Source of the DNA: an uncultured Chloroflexia bacterium
Lineage (GTDB): Bacteria > Chloroflexota > Limnocylindria > Limnocylindrales > CSP1-4
Reading direction: 5' to 3'
NCBI GenBank assembly: GCA_963770795.1
Contig: CAVYQR010000006.1
Coordinates: 70,264 to 134,263 of the forward strand
Length of the DNA stretch: 64,000 nucleotides
The position numbers and the translations under genes are program-made. Below are positions 41,468 through 53,469 of the stretch, one piece after another. Each line of letters begins with the position of its first letter. Position 1 is the stretch's first letter. The notes beneath the pieces were generated by a model that did not search any database, had not been told where the DNA came from, and saw only the letters and a list, made by a program, of their open reading frames with translations.

Positions 41468-43336
41468 ATGACGATGACGAAGGACGAGCCGCCGGCCGGG
41501 CAGGCCGGCGGCTCGCCGGGACGTCGGAGCCACGTGCCGGGTGACGGCACGGCGGCGGCGGACGCCATCGAGCAGGCCCGCCGGCAGATGCTCCATGACG
41601 TACGGAGCAGGAAGCGGACCCGCATCGGCGCCGACGCGCTCATGGAGGCGCTCATCCACCAGGGCGCGGACACGCTCTTCTCCTACCCGGGCGGCGTCAT
41701 CCTCCCGATCTACGACATCCTCGGGGACTACCCCGAGATCCGCCACGTCCTCGTCCGGCACGAGCAGGGCGGCGCCCACGCGGCCGACGGCTACGCCCGG
41801 GCCAGCGGCAGGGTGGGTGTCTGCATGGGGACCAGCGGTCCCGGTGCCACCAACCTCGTGACCGGCATCGCCACGGCGCAGCTGGACTCCGTGCCGATGG
41901 TCGCGATCACCGGCAACGTGCCCGGCTCGCTGATCGGCAAGGACGCGTTCCAGGAGATCGACATCACCGGCATCACGCTGCCGATGACGAAGCACAACTA
42001 CCTGGTCCGCAACGCCGACGACATCCCTCGCGTCATTGCCGAGGCCTTCTACATCGCGAAGCACGGGCGTCCCGGGCCTGTGCACGTTGACCTCACGAAG
42101 GACGCCCTGCAGCAGGAGACACGTGCCGAGCATCCCTCGCTCGAGCAGGTGGTCGCCGGCCTGCCGGGCTTCCGGCCCAACACCGAGGGCCATCCCAGGC
42201 AGCTGAAGCTGGCCGCCCGGGAGATCGCACAGGCGAAGCGCCCGCTGATCCTGGCAGGACACGGCGTGCTGATCGCCGAGGCCTGGGACGAGCTCAGGGC
42301 CTTCGCTGAGAAGGCGCAGATCCCGGTCGCCTGGACGCTCCTGGGCATCGGCGCCATGGACGAGGATCATCCGCTGGCCTACGGCTACATGGGGATGCAC
42401 GGCTGGAAGCACGTGAACCGCGCGATCCAGTCGGCCGACCTCCTGGTTGCCATCGGGATGCGGTTCGACGACCGGGTCACCGGCAGCGTCAAGACCTACG
42501 CCCCGTACGCGCGGATCATCCACGCGGACATCGACCCGGCCGAGATCGGCAAGAACGTGGCGGTCGAGATCCCGATCGTGGGCGACGCGAAGAACGTCAT
42601 CGTCGGCCTCACGAAGCTGGTCCACCAGGTGGAACCGGCGGCACGCGCCGAGTACCACGCCCAGCTGGCCGAATGGCGCCACGAGTCCGAGGAGTCGTCC
42701 TGGCACGGCTCGGGCGGCTGGAAGGAGGGGGTCCTGTCCGCAGACTTCGTGGTGAGCCGGATCGGTGAGCTCACCGACCACGTCGCCACCTACGTCGCGG
42801 ACGTGGGCCAGAACCAGATGTGGCTCGCCCGCTACACCAGGTTCCGCCGGCCCCACAGTCATATCAGCTCGGGCGGCCTCGGTACGATGGGCTTCGCGGT
42901 CCCGGCCGCGATGGGCGCCGCGCTGGGCAACCCGTCCGCGGAGACGTGGGCGATCTGCGGTGACGGCGGCTTCCAGATGACCAGCCAGGAGCTGATGACC
43001 CTCGCCGCGGATCGCATCCCCGTGAAGATCGCGCTCCTCGACAACAAGAAGCTGGGCATGATCCGGCAGTGGCAGGAGATCTTCTACGCGGAGAACTACC
43101 ACTCCTCGCACCTGCCGGGCCCGGACTTCGCGAAGCTGGCCGATGCCTATGGCATCCCTGCCTTCAAGGCGACCACGACCGGCGAGGTGGACGGCGCGAT
43201 CAAGGCGGCCCAGGCCGTCGACGGTCCAGCGCTCATCTGGTTCGAGATCGAGCAGGAGCAGAACGTGTTCCCGATGATGCCGGCGGGCAAGGGCCTGTCC
43301 GACCTGATCGAGACCTGGGGAGGGCCGGAGGAATGA
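41468..43336 (+). CDS. ilvB: Acetolactate synthase large subunit
   Basis: YPGG, RHEQG, TSGPGATN, FQEID, DVGQNQMW, SGGLGTMGF, GDGGFQMT. Confidence 0.96.
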   Translation: MTMTKDEPPAGQAGGSPGRRSHVPGDGTAAADAIEQARRQMLHDVRSRKRTRIGADALMEALIHQGADTLFSYPGGVILPIYDILGDYPEIRHVLVRHEQGGAHAADGYARASGRVGVCMGTSGPGATNLVTGIATAQLDSVPMVAITGNVPGSLIGKDAFQEIDITGITLPMTKHNYLVRNADDIPRVIAEAFYIAKHGRPGPVHVDLTKDALQQETRAEHPSLEQVVAGLPGFRPNTEGHPRQLKLAAREIAQAKRPLILAGHGVLIAEAWDELRAFAEKAQIPVAWTLLGIGAMDEDHPLAYGYMGMHGWKHVNRAIQSADLLVAIGMRFDDRVTGSVKTYAPYARIIHADIDPAEIGKNVAVEIPIVGDAKNVIVGLTKLVHQVEPAARAEYHAQLAEWRHESEESSWHGSGGWKEGVLSADFVVSRIGELTDHVATYVADVGQNQMWLARYTRFRRPHSHISSGGLGTMGFAVPAAMGAALGNPSAETWAICGDGGFQMTSQELMTLAADRIPVKIALLDNKKLGMIRQWQEIFYAENYHSSHLPGPDFAKLADAYGIPAFKATTTGEVDGAIKAAQAVDGPALIWFEIEQEQNVFPMMPAGKGLSDLIETWGGPEE

Positions 43337-43950
43337 GTCCCGACCAGGAGACACCCACCCCAAAGGCCGCCGCCGCGCCTGACACGGTGCCGGCGCCAGC
43401 CCACACAGCCCCGCCGCCGCGCTCCCTCCCCGGCACCGGCGCGGGCCACCGCCACATCCTCGTCGTCCTCGTGATGGACCGGCCCGGCGTCCTGAACCGG
43501 GTCGCCAGCCTCATGCGGGCGCGCAACTTCAACATCGACTCCCTGGCCGTCTCGCGGACGGACAAGCCGCACATCAGCCGCATGACCCTCACCCTCCACG
43601 GTGACGACGTCGCGGTGGAGCAGGCGACCAAGCAGCTCTACCGGCTGATCGACGTGCTCAAGGTGCAGGACGTCACGGCCGAACAGGTCGTTGAGCACGA
43701 GCTCGCGCTGCTCAAGGTCCGCGCGACCGACACGAACCGGGCCGAGGTCATCAAGATCGTCGAGCTCTACAAGGGCCGGATCGTGGACATCGCCCCGGAT
43801 GCCGTCATCGTCGAGGCGAGCGGCACGGAAGCCGAGATCGACAGTCTCGTCGCGCTGGTGCGCGGCTATGGGATCAAGGAACTTGTCCGGACCGGCGCGG
43901 TCGTGATGCTGCGCGGCGCCGGGTCCATCGAGGAGGCACTCAAGCTATGA
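43333..43950 (+). CDS. ilvN: Acetolactate synthase small (regulatory) subunit
   Basis: [46 protein letters not shown]. Confidence 0.95.
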
Positions 43951-45005
43951 CCGCTCGGATGTACTACGACGCCGATGCCGACCCCACCGCGCTCGACGGG
44001 CAGACCGTTGCGGTCATCGGCTACGGCAGCCAGGGCCACGCCCACGCCCTCAACCTGCGCGACAGCGGCGTGAGTGTCGTCGTCGGCCTGGCGGCCGGCT
44101 CCAAGAGCCGGCCCCTGGCGGAGGCGGCGGGCCTGCGCGTGCTCGATACCGCCGAGGCGGTGAAGGGCGCCGACGTCGTGATGATCGCCGTCCCGGATAC
44201 CGCCCAGAAGGCGGTCTACGACGCCGACATCGCCCCCAACCTCAAGCCCGGTTCGCTCCTGATGTTCGCCCACGGGTTCAACATCCGGTTCGGTCAGATC
44301 AAGCCCGACGCCGGCGTCGACGTGGGCATGGTGGCGCCGAAGGGCCCGGGTCACCTCCTGCGCTCCGTCTACGAGCAGGGCGGTGGCGTGCCGGCCCTGT
44401 TCGCGGTCGACCAGGACGGCTCCGGGACCGCCCGGGCGCGGACGCTTGCCTACGCCCGGGGCATCGGCTCCACGCGTGCCGGCGTCCTCGAGACGACCTT
44501 CACGGAGGAGACCGAGACAGACCTGTTCGGCGAACAGGCCCTGCTCTGCGGCGGCGTTTCCGCCCTTGTCAAGGCCGCGTTCGAGACCCTCGTCGAAGCC
44601 GGCTACCAGCCCGAGCTCGCCTACTTCGAGACGATGCACGAGCTCAAGCTGATCGTGGACCTCATGTACCGCGGTGGCCTCAACTTCATGCGCTTCAGCG
44701 TCAGCGAGACCGCGGAGTACGGCGACTACGTCTCCGGCCCGCGCGTGACCGAGGGCGCAAAGGCGGCGATGAAGGACGTGCTGACCGACATCCAGAGCGG
44801 CTCGTTCGCAACCCGCTGGATCGCCGAGCAGGAGTCCGGCGGCGAGACGTTCGCCAGGCTTCGCCAGCAGGATCACGATCACCAGATCGAGCAGGTCGGC
44901 GCCGACCTCCGGGCGAAGATGTCGTTCCTCGACCCGGTGGTGGTCGAAGCCGGTCAGGCCCAGGCAGTGGCCAGCAACGCTCCGTCGGGGGAGGGCGGAC
45001 GATGA
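43947..45005 (+). CDS. ilvC: Ketol-acid reductoisomerase
   Basis: [41 protein letters not shown]. Confidence 0.97.
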
Positions 45006-46645
45006 CCTTCGAGGCCACGCACCCGCGGTTCGGCGGAGGCGTCGCGGCCGGCTCCGTCCGCATCTTCGACACCACCCTCCGCGATGGCGAGCAGGCGCCC
45101 GGGGCCGGCCTGACGGCCGCCGAGAAGCTCGACGTCGCACGCCAGCTCGCACGGCTGAAGGTCGACGTGATCGAGGCGGGCTTCCCGTCCGCCTCGCCCG
45201 GTGACTTCGAGGCGGTCCGCCGGATCGCCGAGGACACGAAGGGTGGGATCGCGGTCGCGGCCCTCGCCCGCTGCAAGGACGGCGACCCGCAGCGCGCCGT
45301 CGAGGCCATCGGCATCGCCGAGCGCCCGCACCTGCACCTGTTCATCGCCACCAGCGACATCCACCTCACGCACAAGCTGCGCATCTCCCGCGAGCAGGCC
45401 CTCGCCGAGGCGCGTCGCTGGGTGGGCTGGGCGCGCAAGACGCTGGGCCCCGATGCGGAGATCGAGTTCTCCGCCGAGGACGCCTCGCGGACCGAGGACG
45501 CGTTCCTGCTGGACGTGTACGAGGCCGTCGTGGAGGCCGGTGCCTCCACGGTGAACATCCCGGACACGGTCGGCTACGCGATCCCGGCCGAGTTCGGCGC
45601 CCTGGTCGGCCGGGTCGTGGACCGGGTCGGCCGCGACGCGACGGTCAGCGTCCACTGCCACAACGACCTGGGGCTCGCCACGGCGAACACCCTGGCTGCC
45701 GTGCAGGCGGGCGCCCGGCAGGTCGAGGTCACGATCAACGGCCTCGGCGAGCGGGCCGGCAACGCCTCCCTGGAGGAGGTCGTCATGGCCCTTCGGACGC
45801 GCCCCGGGCAGTTCCCGGACCTCGCGGCCGGCGTCCAGACCGAGCAGATCACCCCGGCCTCGCGCCTGGTGTCCTACCTGACCGGCTTCGCGATCCAGCC
45901 CAACAAGGCCATCGTCGGCGCCAACGCGTTCGCCCACGAGTCCGGCATCCACCAGGACGGCTTCCTCAAGAACCCGCTGACCTACGAGATCATGACCCCG
46001 CAGTCCGTCGGGCTGTCCGGGAGCACCCTGTCGATCGGCAAGCTCTCCGGCCGGCGCGGGCTCCAGGGCAAGCTCCGGGAGCTGGGCCAGGAGGTGGCCA
46101 GCGACGAGCTCGACGAGATCTACCGGGCCGCGGTCGCGCTGGCCGATACGAAGAAGGAGGTCACGGACGCGGACCTGCTCGCGCTCGTCGAGCAACAGAG
46201 GTCGGACGTGCCGCGGTCCATCGAGCTGCTGGGCTGGAGCATCAGCTCCTCGTCCGGCGGGCACTCCGCGGGCAGCATCTCGCTGGTGGTCGCCGGCCAG
46301 GCGAAGGCGGGTGACGCCACCGGCAACGGCCCGGTCAACGCGCTGTACAAGGCCGTCGACGAGGCGCTCAAGCCCGTCCTCGGCTGGTACCTGGTCCTCA
46401 CCGAGTACGAGATCAAGGCCGTCTCCGGCGACGGCGATGCGCAGGGCCAGGTGCTGGTCCGGGCCCGCCGCTCGTCCGACGAGGGCCCGGGGGCACTCGT
46501 GGTCACGGGCCACGGCCTGTCCACCAACATCATCGAGGCCTCGCTCGAGGCGTACCTCGTGGCCGCCAACAAGCTTCACGGCGCCGAGATCAACGGCATC
46601 GAGGTGCCGTTCGTCGGCCGGACCATGGGCGAGGAGCTCCCGTGA
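45002..46645 (+). CDS. leuA: 2-isopropylmalate synthase with C-terminal regulatory domain
   Basis: [40 protein letters not shown]. Confidence 0.93.
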
Positions 46646-47780
46646 CGGGGAGTGCCGGCGACCCGGCGCTCACCTACCGGATCACGCTCATCCCCGGTGA
46701 CGGGGTGGGGCCCGAGGTCGTCGCCGGTGCGGTCTCGGTCCTCGAGACCGTCGGCCGCCGATTCGGGTTCGGGTTCGACTGGCAGCAGCTGATCGTCGGC
46801 GGGGCGGGGATCGACGCGTACGGCGTTGCCATCCGTCCCGAGGACGTGGAGGTCTGTCGCGACGCCGACGCCGTCGTCCTGGGCGCCGTCGGCGGGCCGA
46901 AGTGGGACGACCCGGACGCGGCCGTCCGCCCGGAGCAGGCGCTGTTCGCCCTCCGTGGTGGCCTCGGTCTGTTCGCCAACCTGCGGCCGATCACCGTCAA
47001 TCCCTCCCTGATCTCCGCCTCGCCGCTGAAGCCGGAGCTCCTTGAGGGCGTGGACTGCCTCATCGTCCGGGAGCTCACCTCCGGGCTCTATTTCGGCAGG
47101 CCCTCCGAGCAGCGCATCACGCCCGAGGGACGCGCCGCCATCGACACCCTCTGGTACACCGAGGGCGAGATCCGGCAGATCGTCACCCTGGCGTTCGAGC
47201 TGGCCCGTGGCCGCCGCCGCAAGCTCACCTCGGTGGACAAGGCCAACGTCCTCGCGACATCGCGGCTGTGGCGCAAGGTCACCGAGGAGGTCCACGCGGA
47301 CTTCCCGGACGTCGTCCTGGAGCACCGCCTCGTCGACTCCGCCGCGATGGTCCTCGCCAGCCGGCCGGCCGGTTTCGACGTGCTCGTCACCGAGAACCTG
47401 TTCGGGGACATCCTCTCGGACGAGGCGGCGGTCATCGCCGGCTCGCTGGGCATGCTGCCGTCCGCGTCGCTGGGGACCCGGACCACCGCCTATGGGCGCT
47501 TCGGCCTCTACGAGCCGATCCACGGCACGGCGCCGGACATCGCCGGCCAGGACCTCGCCAACCCGCTGGGCATGATCCTGTCGACGGCGATGATGCTCCG
47601 CTGGTCGCTGGGCCAGTCCGCGGCCGCGGACGCCATCGAGTCGGCCGTCAACGGCGTGCTGGCGGACGGCTTCCGGACCAGGGACCTCGTCCCGTCCGAC
47701 CCCGTGGAGGCCGCGGCCTGCACCGTGGTCGGGACGACGGAGATGGCACGCGCGATCGGGGACCGACTGGGCCTCCCGGC

Positions 47781-47784
<4 letters not shown>
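46642..47784 (+). CDS. leuB: 3-isopropylmalate dehydrogenase
   Basis: PGDGVGPEV, VRELTSGLYFG, DKANVL, NLFGDILSDEA, EPIHGTAPDIAG. Confidence 0.96.
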
Positions 47785-49462
<1,678 letters not shown>

Positions 49463-49466
<4 letters not shown>

Positions 49467-50008
49467 CCGACCCGACCCCGATCTCCGCCGATCCGGACCC
49501 GATCCGGCTCGGGCGCTGGACGGTCACGTCCGGGAGCAACGTCAACAGCCGCGCCGCCGTCGTGCTCCAGGCCGGCAGCCACGACTGGAAGGCGTCCGCG
49601 GAGGGCAACGGAGCCGTCGATGCGCTCCTCCGCGCGGTGGACGGAGCCCTCGTCGACATCCTCGGCGGGCACCCGGTGCTGATCGCCTACGACGTGCATG
49701 CGCTGGCGGAGGGGCCGGATGCGGAGGGCCGGGTCACCGTCCAGATCGCAGCCCCGGCGGATACCGAGGGACCGCGCTCCGGCGGCAGCTACACGGGCGA
49801 GGTTGCCAGCACGAACATCGTGGCGGCCTCGGTCGAGGCCTACGTGCACGCCCTGAACGCGATGCTGGCCGATCCATCCTGGTCGGGGGCCGCGGAGGCG
49901 GCCGGATCGCGCCGGGATCGCGGCGTCGGCATGGATCCGGGCGGTGCGGCTGCGGAGTTCGATGACGACGCCCGCCCGATAGACACGACCGAGTGGTTCA
50001 ACCGCTAG
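49463..50008 (+). CDS. Stand-alone LeuA-type allosteric (leucine-binding/dimerisation) domain protein
   Basis: ASAEGNGAVDALLRAVD...YDVHAL...DAEGRVTV...STNIVAASVEAY parallels the LeuA and CimA C-termini in this window; no catalytic TIM barrel; GTG overlaps the cimA stop. Confidence 0.8.
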
Positions 50009-50883
50009 GCGTCGGCCTGCCCGGGGCTGTGCCGGCTCCGGTGCCCGCCGTCGCGTCCGCTGGTCCGCCGCCCATCGACGCCGAGGCGTTCAACGCGTTC
50101 GAGGCCGCCGGCTGGGAGGCGCGCGCCGACTCGTATGCGTTCCTGCGTCCGCTGACCGCCCGCGTCATCGGGACACTCCTCGCGTCCGCCGGCGTTGCGG
50201 CGGGCCACGAGGTGCTCGACGTGGGAAGCGGCCCGGGCGACCTGGCCGCGGCGGCCGCGTCGCTCGGGGCCGACACCGTTGGCATCGACGTCGCGCCGTC
50301 CATGGTCCGGCGGGCGGCCCTCGCCCATCCCACGATCCCGTTCCGGGTGGGGTCCTTCGAGGCGATCCCGGCCGGGGAGGGGGCATTCGACGCCGTGGTC
50401 GGCAACTTCGTGCTCAACCACGTGGGCCGGCAGGAGGCGGCGCTGGCCGAAGCGATGCGGGTCCTGCGGCCCGGCGGCTGGCTGGCGCTCTCCTCGTGGG
50501 ATGCTCCGCGACGGAACCGTGTCCTGGGGCTGGTGCTGGACGCGGTCGTCGCGGCCGATGCGCCGCCGCCGCCCGGGCTGCCGGCTGGTCCCACCAACTT
50601 CCGAACCGACGAGGAGCTGCGCGTGCTGTTCACCAATGCCGGGTTCGCTGACGTGGGCCTCGGCCGGGTCATGTTCGAGGCGATGGTCCCGGACCTGGAA
50701 ACGCTCTGGCGCGGGGTCCTGGATTCGGCCGTCCGGATCCCGCCGCTCGTGACAACCCAGACGCCGGATGTCCAGGCCCGGATCCGCGTGGCCTTCGACC
50801 GGCTGGCGGAAGTCCACCGGCGGCCGGACGGGCACTACGCGATCCCGGTTTCCGTCCAGGTGACTCGGGGCCGTCGGCCATGA
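49993..50883 (+). CDS. Class I SAM-dependent methyltransferase (UbiE/Methyltransf_11-like)
   Basis: VLDVGSGPG, GIDVAP, FDAVVGNF, RVLRPGG. True start probably 50029-50041. Confidence 0.85.
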   Translation: MVQPLGVGLPGAVPAPVPAVASAGPPPIDAEAFNAFEAAGWEARADSYAFLRPLTARVIGTLLASAGVAAGHEVLDVGSGPGDLAAAAASLGADTVGIDVAPSMVRRAALAHPTIPFRVGSFEAIPAGEGAFDAVVGNFVLNHVGRQEAALAEAMRVLRPGGWLALSSWDAPRRNRVLGLVLDAVVAADAPPPPGLPAGPTNFRTDEELRVLFTNAGFADVGLGRVMFEAMVPDLETLWRGVLDSAVRIPPLVTTQTPDVQARIRVAFDRLAEVHRRPDGHYAIPVSVQVTRGRRP

Positions 50884-51749
50884 TCGATCGCCCGCTCCGC
50901 GTGGCCTACACCGGGGAGCCCGGTGCATTTGCCGAGGAGGCTGTCCTGCGGTTCTTCGCCTCGCCCGAGGCCGTGCCGGAGTCCTCGTTCCGGGCCGCCT
51001 TCGAGGCCGTCCGCGACGGCTCGGCCGATGCCGGCGTCGTTCCGGTCGAGAGCTCCCTGCTCGGGACCATCCGGGAGAACCTCGACCTGCTCTACGAGTT
51101 CGACCTGCCGGTGGTGGGCGAGGTCTCCGTCCCCGTGCAGCTGGCGCTGCTCGCTCTGCCGGGGGAGCGGCTGGAGACCATCGAGCGTGTCTACTCCATC
51201 TCCGCGGCGCTGGCCCAGGCGGACGACTTCCTCCGGTCGCGCCCATGGACGATCCAGACCACGTACAACACGGCGGGGGCCGCCAAGCAGATCGCAGATC
51301 GCGGGGAGCGCGGGGCCGCGGCCGTCGCGTCCGCGCGCGTCGCCCCGATCTACGGCATGGAGGTCATCGCCGACGGGATCCAGACCGGCGACGCGAACCG
51401 CACCCGGTTCCACGTGATCGCGCGGCCGGGCGACGCGCCGCTGGTGCTGGCCGCCGCCCGGGCCGAAGCCGTGGCAGGGCCGCTGCGAACGTCTCTCGTG
51501 TTCGCCGTGCGCAACGTGCCGGGGTCCCTCTACCGCTCGCTGGGGGCGTTCGCAACCCGCGGGATCAACATGGTCCGCCTCGAATCCCGTCCCTGGACGA
51601 AGCTCGGCTCACGCTGGGAGTACCTGTTCTGGGTGGACCTGGACGCGGATCCGGCATCCCCTGCGTGCGGGCATGCCCTCACCGCGCTGCGCAGCGAGAC
51701 CGAGGTGGTCCGGGTCCTGGGCACCTATCCGCGGGCGCCCGAGGATTGA
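50880..51749 (+). CDS. pheA: Prephenate dehydratase with ACT domain
   Basis: VAYTGEPGAFAE, VVPVESS, ALAQ, NTAGAA, NRTRF, NVPGSL, LESRP, YLFWVD, LGTYP. Confidence 0.92.
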   Translation: MIDRPLRVAYTGEPGAFAEEAVLRFFASPEAVPESSFRAAFEAVRDGSADAGVVPVESSLLGTIRENLDLLYEFDLPVVGEVSVPVQLALLALPGERLETIERVYSISAALAQADDFLRSRPWTIQTTYNTAGAAKQIADRGERGAAAVASARVAPIYGMEVIADGIQTGDANRTRFHVIARPGDAPLVLAAARAEAVAGPLRTSLVFAVRNVPGSLYRSLGAFATRGINMVRLESRPWTKLGSRWEYLFWVDLDADPASPACGHALTALRSETEVVRVLGTYPRAPED

Positions 51750-51795: not shown

Positions 51796-53469
51796 TTGAC
51801 AGTGGTGGACGAAGCGTTCAGGACGGCGATGGCGGCGGGCTACGCGTTCGACGAGCCCGTCATCGTGTTCGGCTCGCCCATCATCGGGGACGAGGTTCTC
51901 CCCGACGTCCGAGTCCAGGTCCCGCTCTCCCGCATCAACCGCCACGGGCTGATCGCAGGGGCCACCGGGACCGGCAAGACGAAGACCCTCCAGTTGCTCG
52001 CCGGCCAGCTCTCCGACGCGGGTGTCCCTGTCTTCGCGGTCGACGTGAAGGGCGATCTGTCCGGCGTCGGCGCGCCCGGGGACGGCACCAACCCCAAGAT
52101 CGCCGAACGCGCCGCCTCCCTGAACTTCACGTTCCAGGCGGCCGGTCACCCCATCGAGATCCTCTCGCTCTCGGGCAAGGTGGGTGCCCACGTCCGCGCC
52201 AGCGTGTCTTCGTTCGGCCCGCTCCTCCTGGGCAAGGTCCTCGACCTCAACGACACCCAGACCTCGATCCTGTCGCTCGTCTTCCGCTACTGCGATGACG
52301 AGGACCTGCCGCTCCTGGACCTCGCCGACCTCCGGACCACCCTCAAGTTCCTGGGCTCGGACGACGGCAAGCCCGTGCTGGAGGACCTGGGCGGGATCAG
52401 CACCGCGTCGCTCGGCGTGATCCTGCGGTCCATCGTGACCCTGGAACAGGAAGGTGCGGGCGACTTCTTCGGCGAGCCCGAGTTCGACGTGGACGACCTG
52501 CTCCGCACCGGTCTCGACGGCAGGGGCGTGATCACGCTCCTGGAGGTTGCGGACGTCATGGACCGCCCGCGCCTCTACTCCACGTTCGTGCTCTGGATGC
52601 TCGCCCAGCTGTACGAGGGGCTGCCCGAGGTGGGCGACCAGCCGAAGCCGAAGCTGGCCTTCTTCTTCGATGAGGCCCACCTGCTGTTCGATGACGCCTC
52701 CGAGGCGCTGATGGACCAGATCGAGCGGACGGCTCGCCTCATCCGGTCCAAGGGCGTCGGCGTCTACTTCGTCACCCAGGCACCCACGGACGTCCCGTCG
52801 CCGGTCCTCTCCCAGCTGGGCAACCGGGTCCAGCACGCCCTGCGGGCCTTCACCCCTGACGATGCCGATGCGCTGCGCAAGACCGCGCGGACCTTCCCGA
52901 TGACCGACCACTACGACGTGGAGCGGACGATCACCTCCCTCGGCATCGGAGAGGCACTGGTCACCGTCCTCTCGCCCAAGGGCGTCCCAACGCCGCTCGC
53001 CGCCACCCGGCTGCTGCCGCCGGACTCCCGGATGGCCCCGCTCACCGAGGCCGAGATCGCGTCCGTCGTCGCAGCGTCGCCGCTCGCGGCACGCTACGGG
53101 CAGGCCGTGGACCGCGAGAGCGCCCACGAGATCATCACGGCCCGCCTGGCCACCGCCCGCGCCGCCGCCGCCCAGGCGCAGATGGCCGCCGCCGCTCTCC
53201 CCACCACCGGCGCCGGCCTCGACACGATGACCCCGGCCCAGCAGCGGCGCGCGATCGAGAAGCGGGCTCGGGAGCTGGAGTCGGCCCGCCGGGCGGCCGA
53301 GCGCGAGCGCAAGGCGCAGGAGCGCGCGATCAAGGCGGCCGAGCGCCAGCAGCAGAAGACGATGGAGACGGCGATCCGGACGGCCGGCCGCGTCGCCACC
53401 TCGAGAGCCGGCCAGTCGCTCATGCGCGGCGTGTTCGACACGATCTTCGGCGGCGGCAAGCGCGGTTGA
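51796..53469 (+). CDS. HerA-like/DUF853 (YjgR-type) ATPase with C-terminal coiled coil
   Basis: NRHGLIAGATGTGKTKTLQ, FFFDEAHLLF, RSKGVGVYFVTQ. Confidence 0.92.
   Translation: MTVVDEAFRTAMAAGYAFDEPVIVFGSPIIGDEVLPDVRVQVPLSRINRHGLIAGATGTGKTKTLQLLAGQLSDAGVPVFAVDVKGDLSGVGAPGDGTNPKIAERAASLNFTFQAAGHPIEILSLSGKVGAHVRASVSSFGPLLLGKVLDLNDTQTSILSLVFRYCDDEDLPLLDLADLRTTLKFLGSDDGKPVLEDLGGISTASLGVILRSIVTLEQEGAGDFFGEPEFDVDDLLRTGLDGRGVITLLEVADVMDRPRLYSTFVLWMLAQLYEGLPEVGDQPKPKLAFFFDEAHLLFDDASEALMDQIERTARLIRSKGVGVYFVTQAPTDVPSPVLSQLGNRVQHALRAFTPDDADALRKTARTFPMTDHYDVERTITSLGIGEALVTVLSPKGVPTPLAATRLLPPDSRMAPLTEAEIASVVAASPLAARYGQAVDRESAHEIITARLATARAAAAQAQMAAAALPTTGAGLDTMTPAQQRRAIEKRARELESARRAAERERKAQERAIKAAERQQQKTMETAIRTAGRVATSRAGQSLMRGVFDTIFGGGKRG

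Follow-up and report, generated by a model that had tools for sequence, protein, structure and literature searches.

The analysed window is a stretch of 64,000 nucleotides of DNA from an uncultured Chloroflexia bacterium, with a GC content of ~71%, and all features described here lie on its plus strand. Between 41.5 and 51.7 kb it contains an operon of branched-chain amino acid (BCAA) biosynthesis, in which Pfam matches identify ilvB (about 41540-43336), ilvN (to 43950), ilvC (43947-45005) and leuB (46642-47784). The 2-isopropylmalate synthase gene leuA (45002-46645; 547 aa; NF002086, 634 bits) and the citramalate synthase gene cimA (47781-49466; 561 aa; TIGR00977, 628 bits for a cut-off of 450) each encode an HMGL-like, an HCS_D2 and a LeuA_dimer domain, in agreement with an earlier note on this DNA, according to which both synthases keep regulatory domains of their own. 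The genes from ilvB to cimA (41540-49466) are closely packed, with stop codons overlapping start codons. They are followed by a gene for a stand-alone LeuA-type regulatory-domain protein (hereafter SA; 49463-50008), which is supported by the open reading frame call, a Pfam LeuA_dimer match, homologues and dN/dS values. A SAM-dependent methyltransferase (Methyltransf_11/25; 49993-50883), which overlaps the end of SA by 16 nt, and the prephenate dehydratase pheA with its ACT domain (50880-51749), both identified by Pfam, complete the operon.

The SA open reading frame starts with GTG at 49463 and ends with the stop codon TAG at 50006-50008, and its product of 181 amino acids has a mass of 18.5 kDa and a pI of 4.4. 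The GC content at third codon positions (GC3 0.89) fits genuine coding, as judged from codon-position GC. The start codon of SA and the stop codon of cimA share the four nucleotides GTGA (49463-49466), preceded by a Shine-Dalgarno-like GGGAGG (49451-49456) that is located 6 nt 5' of the GTG, within the 3' end of cimA. This arrangement recurs in related loci. In 41 of 70 loci, GGAGG or GGGAGG precedes a 4-nt overlap (ATGA or GTGA) of the SA start and the cimA stop, a count in which the start-picking heuristic failed for part of the loci outside the 41; in about seven further loci the gap between cimA and SA is at most 6 nt, and GGAGG or GGGAGG is present at the equivalent position in most of the 70. 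The coupling of SA to cimA that the earlier note had proposed is borne out by the GTGA overlap, the GGGAGG and the 41 loci that are alike, and SA appears to be translationally coupled to cimA. A scan for terminators and promoters gave nothing above chance, and the sequencing runs containing the SA locus are DNA metagenomes only; RNA runs were sought and none was found.

The sole domain recognized in SA by Pfam is LeuA_dimer (PF08502), with an E-value of 8.2e-24 and a score of 84.4 bits (gathering score 24.9); the match spans residues 11-134 of SA and positions 19-130 of the 131 positions of the profile. The NCBIfam models for LeuA and CimA meet SA via their last 110-130 positions only, at 17-61 bits for cut-offs of 450-950. 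Both the HMGL-like (DRE-TIM) catalytic barrel and the HCS_D2 accessory domain are absent from SA in the Pfam and NCBIfam searches, and no nucleic-acid-binding domain was found with Pfam. Judged by these profiles, SA is clearly a member of PF08502 and not an isopropylmalate synthase, since the catalytic domain is absent. The SA domain is 38% identical to the C-terminus of the LeuA protein of the window, its closest paralogue, and 32% identical to that of CimA. The earlier note had asked for a Pfam LeuA_dimer search, which gave this match far above threshold, and had described the 181-aa protein as a regulatory domain alone, free-standing, of LeuA/CimA type and nearest to LeuA; the Pfam result, the identities and the tree presented below agree with that description.

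The AF2 models of SA have a mean pLDDT of 83 with 32 family sequences and 85 with 149. The core regulatory domain (residues 15-136; 49505-49870) is predicted with pLDDT above 90 to consist of two beta-beta-beta-alpha units, with the secondary structure E-E-E-H-E-E-(h)-E-H. In a Foldseek comparison with the PDB, the top 12 matches to the model are all regulatory domains of LeuA from Mycobacterium tuberculosis (MtLeuA) or of the citramalate synthase from Leptospira interrogans (LiCMS), including 3fig (with leucine), 3hps, 1sr9 and 3hpz for MtLeuA and 3f6g/3f6h (with isoleucine) for LiCMS. The matches to 3fig, 3hps, 1sr9, 3f6g and 3f6h have E-values of 7e-8 to 2e-6 and a TM score of 0.8 on the target. 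At the sequence level, a PDB search with the single SA sequence gave no match, and the best match of the SA family profile is 3f6g (E 9e-4). The LiCMS domain, the 'LA domain' of CimA, is thus the best profile match as well as a structural match (TM 0.8), with 21-22% identity to SA, whereas of the two types, LeuA and CimA, SA is nearer to LeuA.

Compared with the regulatory domain of M. tuberculosis LeuA (1SR9, 3FIG), SA has the same Pfam family, the same doubled beta-beta-beta-alpha fold, and likewise the GNGxVxAL and STNI..AS.EAY motifs. In contrast to the LeuA domain, which is fused to the HMGL-like barrel and the accessory domain, SA is unfused, and the linker helix that precedes the LeuA domain (Pfam positions 1-18) is missing from it. 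The invariant residues R18, R30, W42, H79 and W140 are specific to SA, and LeuA has no counterpart to its additional helix, its linker or its C-terminal [FY]-N-x motif.

A search of 5.8 billion proteins identified 1,746 clusters of SA homologues (E<=1e-3, 0.55-1.75 times the query length). The best 120 of these clusters are 171-196 aa long, 65-91% identical to SA and contain PF08502 only. In column statistics of 120 homologues, the near-invariant blocks are RWTVTSGSN.NSRAAVV, HDW.ASAEGNGAVDAL, P.L.AYDVHALAEGPDAEG.V, STN.VAASVEAY and W140. A scan of species genomes yielded 73 SA loci, 71 of which belong to Chloroflexota MAGs by record label (14 'Ca. Limnocylindria', 35 'uncultured Chloroflexia', 20 unclassified and 2 Anaerolineae). 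The remaining two (L019 and L030) are labelled Gaiellaceae (Actinomycetota) and Methylomirabilota; they carry the same ilvNC-leuAB-cimA-SA-pheA block, with SA proteins 62-69% identical to those of Chloroflexota, and these contigs are probably mis-binned or mislabelled. In all 71 informative loci, that is, those with upstream DNA present, cimA is located directly upstream of SA and the order ilvN-ilvC-leuA-leuB-cimA-SA is invariant.

Selection on SA was assessed by the Nei-Gojobori method, which gave dN/dS values of 0.10-0.16 in comparison with the five closest relatives, within the range obtained for ilvC, leuA, leuB, cimA and pheA in the same pairs (0.07-0.27). In 41 genomes the tree length is 10.2 for SA, 3.6 for LeuA, 5.2 for CimA and 10.8 for PheA, so that SA has an evolutionary rate similar to that of PheA and roughly double those of LeuA and CimA. 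The survey of stand-alone copies and of their synteny with cimA, which the earlier note had recommended, thus returned 1,746 clusters, with cimA adjoining SA in 71 of 71 informative loci. The same note had named sporadic, degraded duplicates as the finding that would overturn its reading; this alternative fails in view of the synteny, the dN/dS values and the near-invariant motifs, and SA is a genuine conserved gene rather than a decaying duplicate.

About 45 residues of SA (137-181) lie beyond the Pfam domain and were not mentioned in the earlier note. A family-specific extension outside the Pfam model (49880-49924) comprises W140, present in 120 of 120 homologues, and a helix (residues 143-154) that AF2 predicts with pLDDT ~89 and packs on the domain. 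It is followed by a Gly/Ala/Arg-rich linker (residues 155-164; 49925-49954), which is predicted to be disordered (pLDDT below 50) and is variable in length and sequence. The protein ends in an acidic/aromatic motif, EFDDDARPIDTTEWFNR (residues 165-181; 49955-50005), a candidate docking peptide on the basis of its conservation in the 120 sequences, with the consensus E-[FY]-D-D-x-A-R-P-I-D-T-T-E-W-F-N-R-COOH. Residues E165, D167, I173, D174, T175, T176, W178, F179 and N180 are each found in at least 109 of the 120 homologues, with W178 and F179 in all 120 and N180 in 118. With the 149-sequence alignment, AF2 still assigns residues 155-181 a pLDDT of 47-61 and does not predict docking of the tail in cis, the tail remaining at low confidence; no other open reading frame within the window ends in a similar C-terminal motif. 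SA is thus laid out as a folded domain that is joined by a flexible linker to a conserved peptide at its end, and this conserved tail looks like a docking peptide.

The regulatory-domain motifs of SA include GNGAVDAL (residues 48-55; 49604-49627), aligned with the homologues and with LiCMS, in which Ala51 replaces the usual Pro, and STNIVAASVEAY (residues 116-127). The isoleucine pocket of LiCMS, as described in the 2009 structure paper, is presumably formed by Y430, D431, L451, Y454, I458, T464, V468, P493 and Q495, and all nine residues fit the chain sequence of 3f6g. Of these, T464, together with the adjacent K463, is confirmed in the literature (PMC13381585). In the same order, the nine positions align with V52, D53, L73, Y76, L81, A87, V91, T117 and I119 of SA; seven of them are identical to the LeuA protein of the window, all nine are well conserved in the family, and the G48-N-G50 loop is conserved as well. 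The pocket positions of SA are therefore LeuA-like by alignment, from which we infer that the domain may be competent for ligand binding.

The earlier note had suggested that replacement of the Pro in the canonical GNGP motif could alter ligand binding. This suggestion is weak, since Ala is fixed in the subfamily (119 of 120 close homologues) but not in the family as a whole (136 of 149 sequences), deeper stand-alone clades have Pro or Gly at the position of Ala51, and the isoleucine-binding LiCMS domain has Gly there (GDGG). Because of the residues found in the other clades and in LiCMS, a loss of binding is improbable, and the substitution is unlikely to abolish it. An isolated regulatory domain of CimA folds as dimers and tetramers and specifically binds isoleucine (PMC13381585). 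[quoted passage not shown]

To trace the origin of SA, a maximum-likelihood tree was built from 30 SA domains together with the regulatory domains of LeuA and CimA encoded at the same loci, the domain of LiCMS serving as the outgroup. In this tree SA clusters with the LeuA-type domains (SH-aLRT 89), apart from the CimA type, while the LeuA domains form one group (93) and the CimA domains another (91). The same species clusters recur inside the SA, LeuA and CimA groups, and therefore vertical inheritance is indicated. The tree does not resolve the monophyly of SA, for which the support comes from the tail and from derived residues that its members share. According to this phylogeny, SA descends from a LeuA regulatory domain that was duplicated long ago.

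An exhaustive search of representative proteins extended the family to 451 representatives at E<=1e-3, many of them fragments or frameshifted reads. The complete distant members, 31-48% identical to SA, retain the SA-specific residues R18, R30 and W42 and end in an aromatic motif, such as …GSWFDR, …IDWFPH, …TGWYQD or …GDWFDR. A second SA subfamily (query P0186) comprises 122 clusters with 32-40% identity and C-termini of the form …LM.LYN. (e.g. …LYNP), …MFNH or …SAYNG. Across the SA subfamilies, the common core of the tails appears from these sequences to be [FY]-N-x-COOH.

On long contigs the second subfamily is found in the arrangement ilvB-ilvN-ilvC-leuA-leuB-cimA-ilvE-SA, followed 3' by a PALP enzyme and a GHMP kinase, by aspartate kinase and asd, or by unrelated genes; both the methyltransferase and pheA are missing from this operon. 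The housekeeping enzymes at these loci are 58-69% identical to those of the window, and CimA is 64-69% identical, so that we consider the operons to be orthologous operons of more distant organisms. In two other distant members, the gene in front of SA, which overlaps it by 4 nt, likewise encodes a citramalate synthase of the TIGR00977 type. The BCAA operon, and above all cimA, is thus the only constant association of SA; neither pheA nor the methyltransferase is. In a small clade (P0138/P0159) SA is preceded by a 151-155-aa protein of no known family, and one of its loci (L074) has ilvB after SA. The two copies of this protein (L074:898-1365 and L077:284-739) are 58% identical to each other and overlap SA by 4 nt; they have no Pfam or NCBIfam match and no homologue in the window or the other loci. 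Metagenome scans for longer contigs of the P0138/P0159 clade found none.

Taken together, we propose that SA is a functional, vertically inherited copy of a LeuA-type domain, which acts as a BCAA-sensing dimer in trans, via its tail, on an enzyme of its operon, a reading to which we give even chances. SA, retained as the final conserved member of the ilvBNC-leuA-leuB-cimA operon, would dimerise and form two amino-acid pockets at the interface, as in the isolated regulatory domains of the characterised synthases, and the dimer would bind a branched-chain amino acid. The flexible linker and the C-terminal aromatic motif (…TEWFNR-COOH) would dock SA in trans on an enzyme encoded in the same operon. 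Once docked, SA could add or alter feedback control as a dissociable regulatory subunit, in the way that IlvN does for acetolactate synthase. The gene itself, its fold, conservation, synteny, selection and origin are shown by the data above, whereas dimerisation, the ligand, the docking role of the tail and the identity of the partner are what we infer in this mechanism. CimA is the first candidate partner because cimA and SA are translationally coupled, and LeuA is the second; the presence of ilvE between cimA and SA in the deeper subfamily weakens a CimA-specific assignment. Both synthases already have regulatory domains, which counts against a third sensor, and the need for one is left unexplained.

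Two further analyses were aimed at the partner of SA. The covariation of evolutionary rates was computed from branch lengths fitted on one topology for 41 genomes, with cimA and leuA split into catalytic and regulatory halves. SA correlates with none of the other proteins: its Spearman coefficients with CimA, LeuA, LeuB, IlvC and PheA are between -0.45 and 0.14, compared with 0.47 for the catalytic and regulatory halves of CimA, which served as the positive control. No genuine fusion proteins of SA were found by a Rosetta-stone analysis of the representative search. Matches of 276-607 aa were considered as candidate fusions and rejected, their partial PDT or methyltransferase matches being frameshift or read-through artefacts of error-prone assemblies.

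Small separate polypeptides that provide end-product feedback in trans are known for other enzymes, such as the ACT-domain protein IlvN/IlvH of acetolactate synthase and HisZ of ATP phosphoribosyltransferase. Their genes adjoin that of the catalytic subunit or belong to the same operon, and the window has an ilvN of its own. Like these dissociable subunits, SA is a separate conserved gene that adjoins a catalytic gene (71/71 loci, with overlap in 41/70). The fold and origin of IlvN and HisZ (ACT domain; HisRS paralogue) differ from those of SA, and the candidate partners of SA carry a built-in sensor, unlike the case of IlvN and HisZ. By analogy, SA would functionally most resemble dissociable regulatory subunits of this kind. 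In the most specific form of the proposal, the LeuA/CimA (DRE-TIM, Claisen-condensing) family would have its first dissociable allosteric subunit in SA, a leucine-type sensor dimer anchored by its …W-F-N-x tail on CimA or LeuA and providing a second amino-acid input, a possibility that we advance only tentatively. If this is true, Ile/Leu cross-regulation makes sense where the citramalate route makes both pathways share LeuB and LeuCD.

Alternatively, SA could be an autonomous BCAA sensor, comparable to stand-alone ACT/RAM proteins, with its target outside the synthases, such as IlvE, IlvBN, PheA, the aspartate-family enzymes whose genes follow SA in the sister subfamily, a transporter, or a factor involved in transcription or translation. 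In favour of this reading are a tail that resembles a generic short linear docking motif and with neighbours that vary by clade, being cimA, ilvE or the 151-aa protein on the 5' side and pheA, thrC/thrB-like genes, lysC-asd or ilvB on the 3' side. However, the ilvBNC-leuAB-cimA block is the only constant association, the methyltransferase and pheA are dispensable neighbours, and SA is devoid of a nucleic-acid-binding domain, all of which make a target of this kind unlikely.

The earlier proposal that SA heterodimerises with the synthases or titrates them corresponds to mixed dimers, in which the regulatory domain of CimA or LeuA would pair through the canonical interface with SA instead of with its own counterpart, with the effector specificity changed or the feedback uncoupled. 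The residues of the shared pocket (T117 and I119; V52, L73 and Y76) match LeuA and CimA, the interface is sterically plausible, and synthesis of SA from the mRNA of cimA, immediately after that of the regulatory domain, would favour co-translational pairing. Against this, in characterised synthases the regulatory domains of the obligate homodimer pair constitutively (PMC9860122), so that SA would have to out-compete a tethered partner; ilvE separates cimA from SA in the deeper subfamily; and the rates of SA do not covary with those of either regulatory domain. Mixed dimers would also leave the conserved linker and C-terminal motif unexplained, and the docking-like tail points to a homodimeric sensor on a partner rather than to heterodimerisation or titration, which we regard as distinctly improbable. 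Finally, a ligand-independent role, in which SA would help the synthases in structure or assembly, or a relic in the form of a barely functional duplicated fragment, would fit the twofold faster evolution of SA (10.2 vs 3.6 and 5.2) and a locus seen in DNA metagenome runs with no expression data found, but is very improbable given dN/dS values far below 1, which disfavour a vestigial role, pocket and tail residues near-invariant down to ~35% identity, and the same operon slot held across a deep clade in which CimA is just 64-69% identical.

Feedback control of the synthesis of leucine and of citramalate-route isoleucine is generally attributed to a sensor domain that is part of each synthase itself. 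A detached, conserved sensor that is under selection and has a docking-like tail suggests an extra level of trans-acting control in abundant uncultured soil Chloroflexota. If the proposed function is true, SA would represent a new type of regulatory subunit for the LeuA/CimA enzyme family and a natural model for fused allosteric domains turning into separate subunits, or the reverse. It would also provide a ready-made small amino-acid-binding module. Unlike the isolated CMS/CimA domain, which was made in the laboratory, SA occurs in nature as a gene of its own; the CimA domain has already been engineered into biosensors (PMC13381585).

Full-text searches of the literature library consulted found no papers on a free-standing LeuA-type regulatory domain. 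In public databases the family is named 'alpha-isopropylmalate synthase regulatory domain-containing protein' by NCBI, which also uses this name, with the label [Candidatus Limnocylindr…], for some members of the second subfamily, and '2-isopropylmalate synthase' or 'hypothetical protein' by JGI. The JGI label '2-isopropylmalate synthase' on many members of 170-195 aa is wrong, as the catalytic domain is absent, and the present analysis corrects this recurrent mis-annotation. A further source of confusion is the frameshifted loci of long-read MAGs (L002, L022, L040, L047, L072 and several matches of the representative search), in which genes are split over frames. Such errors yield false 'fusions' and false 'stand-alone' LeuA_dimer fragments in protein databases, for example the P0262/P0398 clade at L085:8372-9441. 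The P0262 clade (17 clusters), considered as a set of stand-alone copies in other lineages, was rejected as a family member, as it represents the C-terminal remainder of a synthase gene that is broken, with a 204-aa HMGL fragment directly upstream.

Several features of the operon beyond SA were also observed. The methyltransferase gene between SA and pheA is present in 27 of the 73 loci and missing elsewhere, with gene order otherwise unchanged. The BCAA operon ends with pheA in 69 of the 73, an unusual link of Phe synthesis to the ilv-leu-cimA genes, and in the deeper subfamily genes of the threonine or aspartate pathways are located downstream in place of pheA. On the 3' side of pheA, the window encodes a HerA-like ATPase (HerA_C/DUF87, E 5e-186; 51796-53469), which is also found downstream of the operon in most of the related loci.
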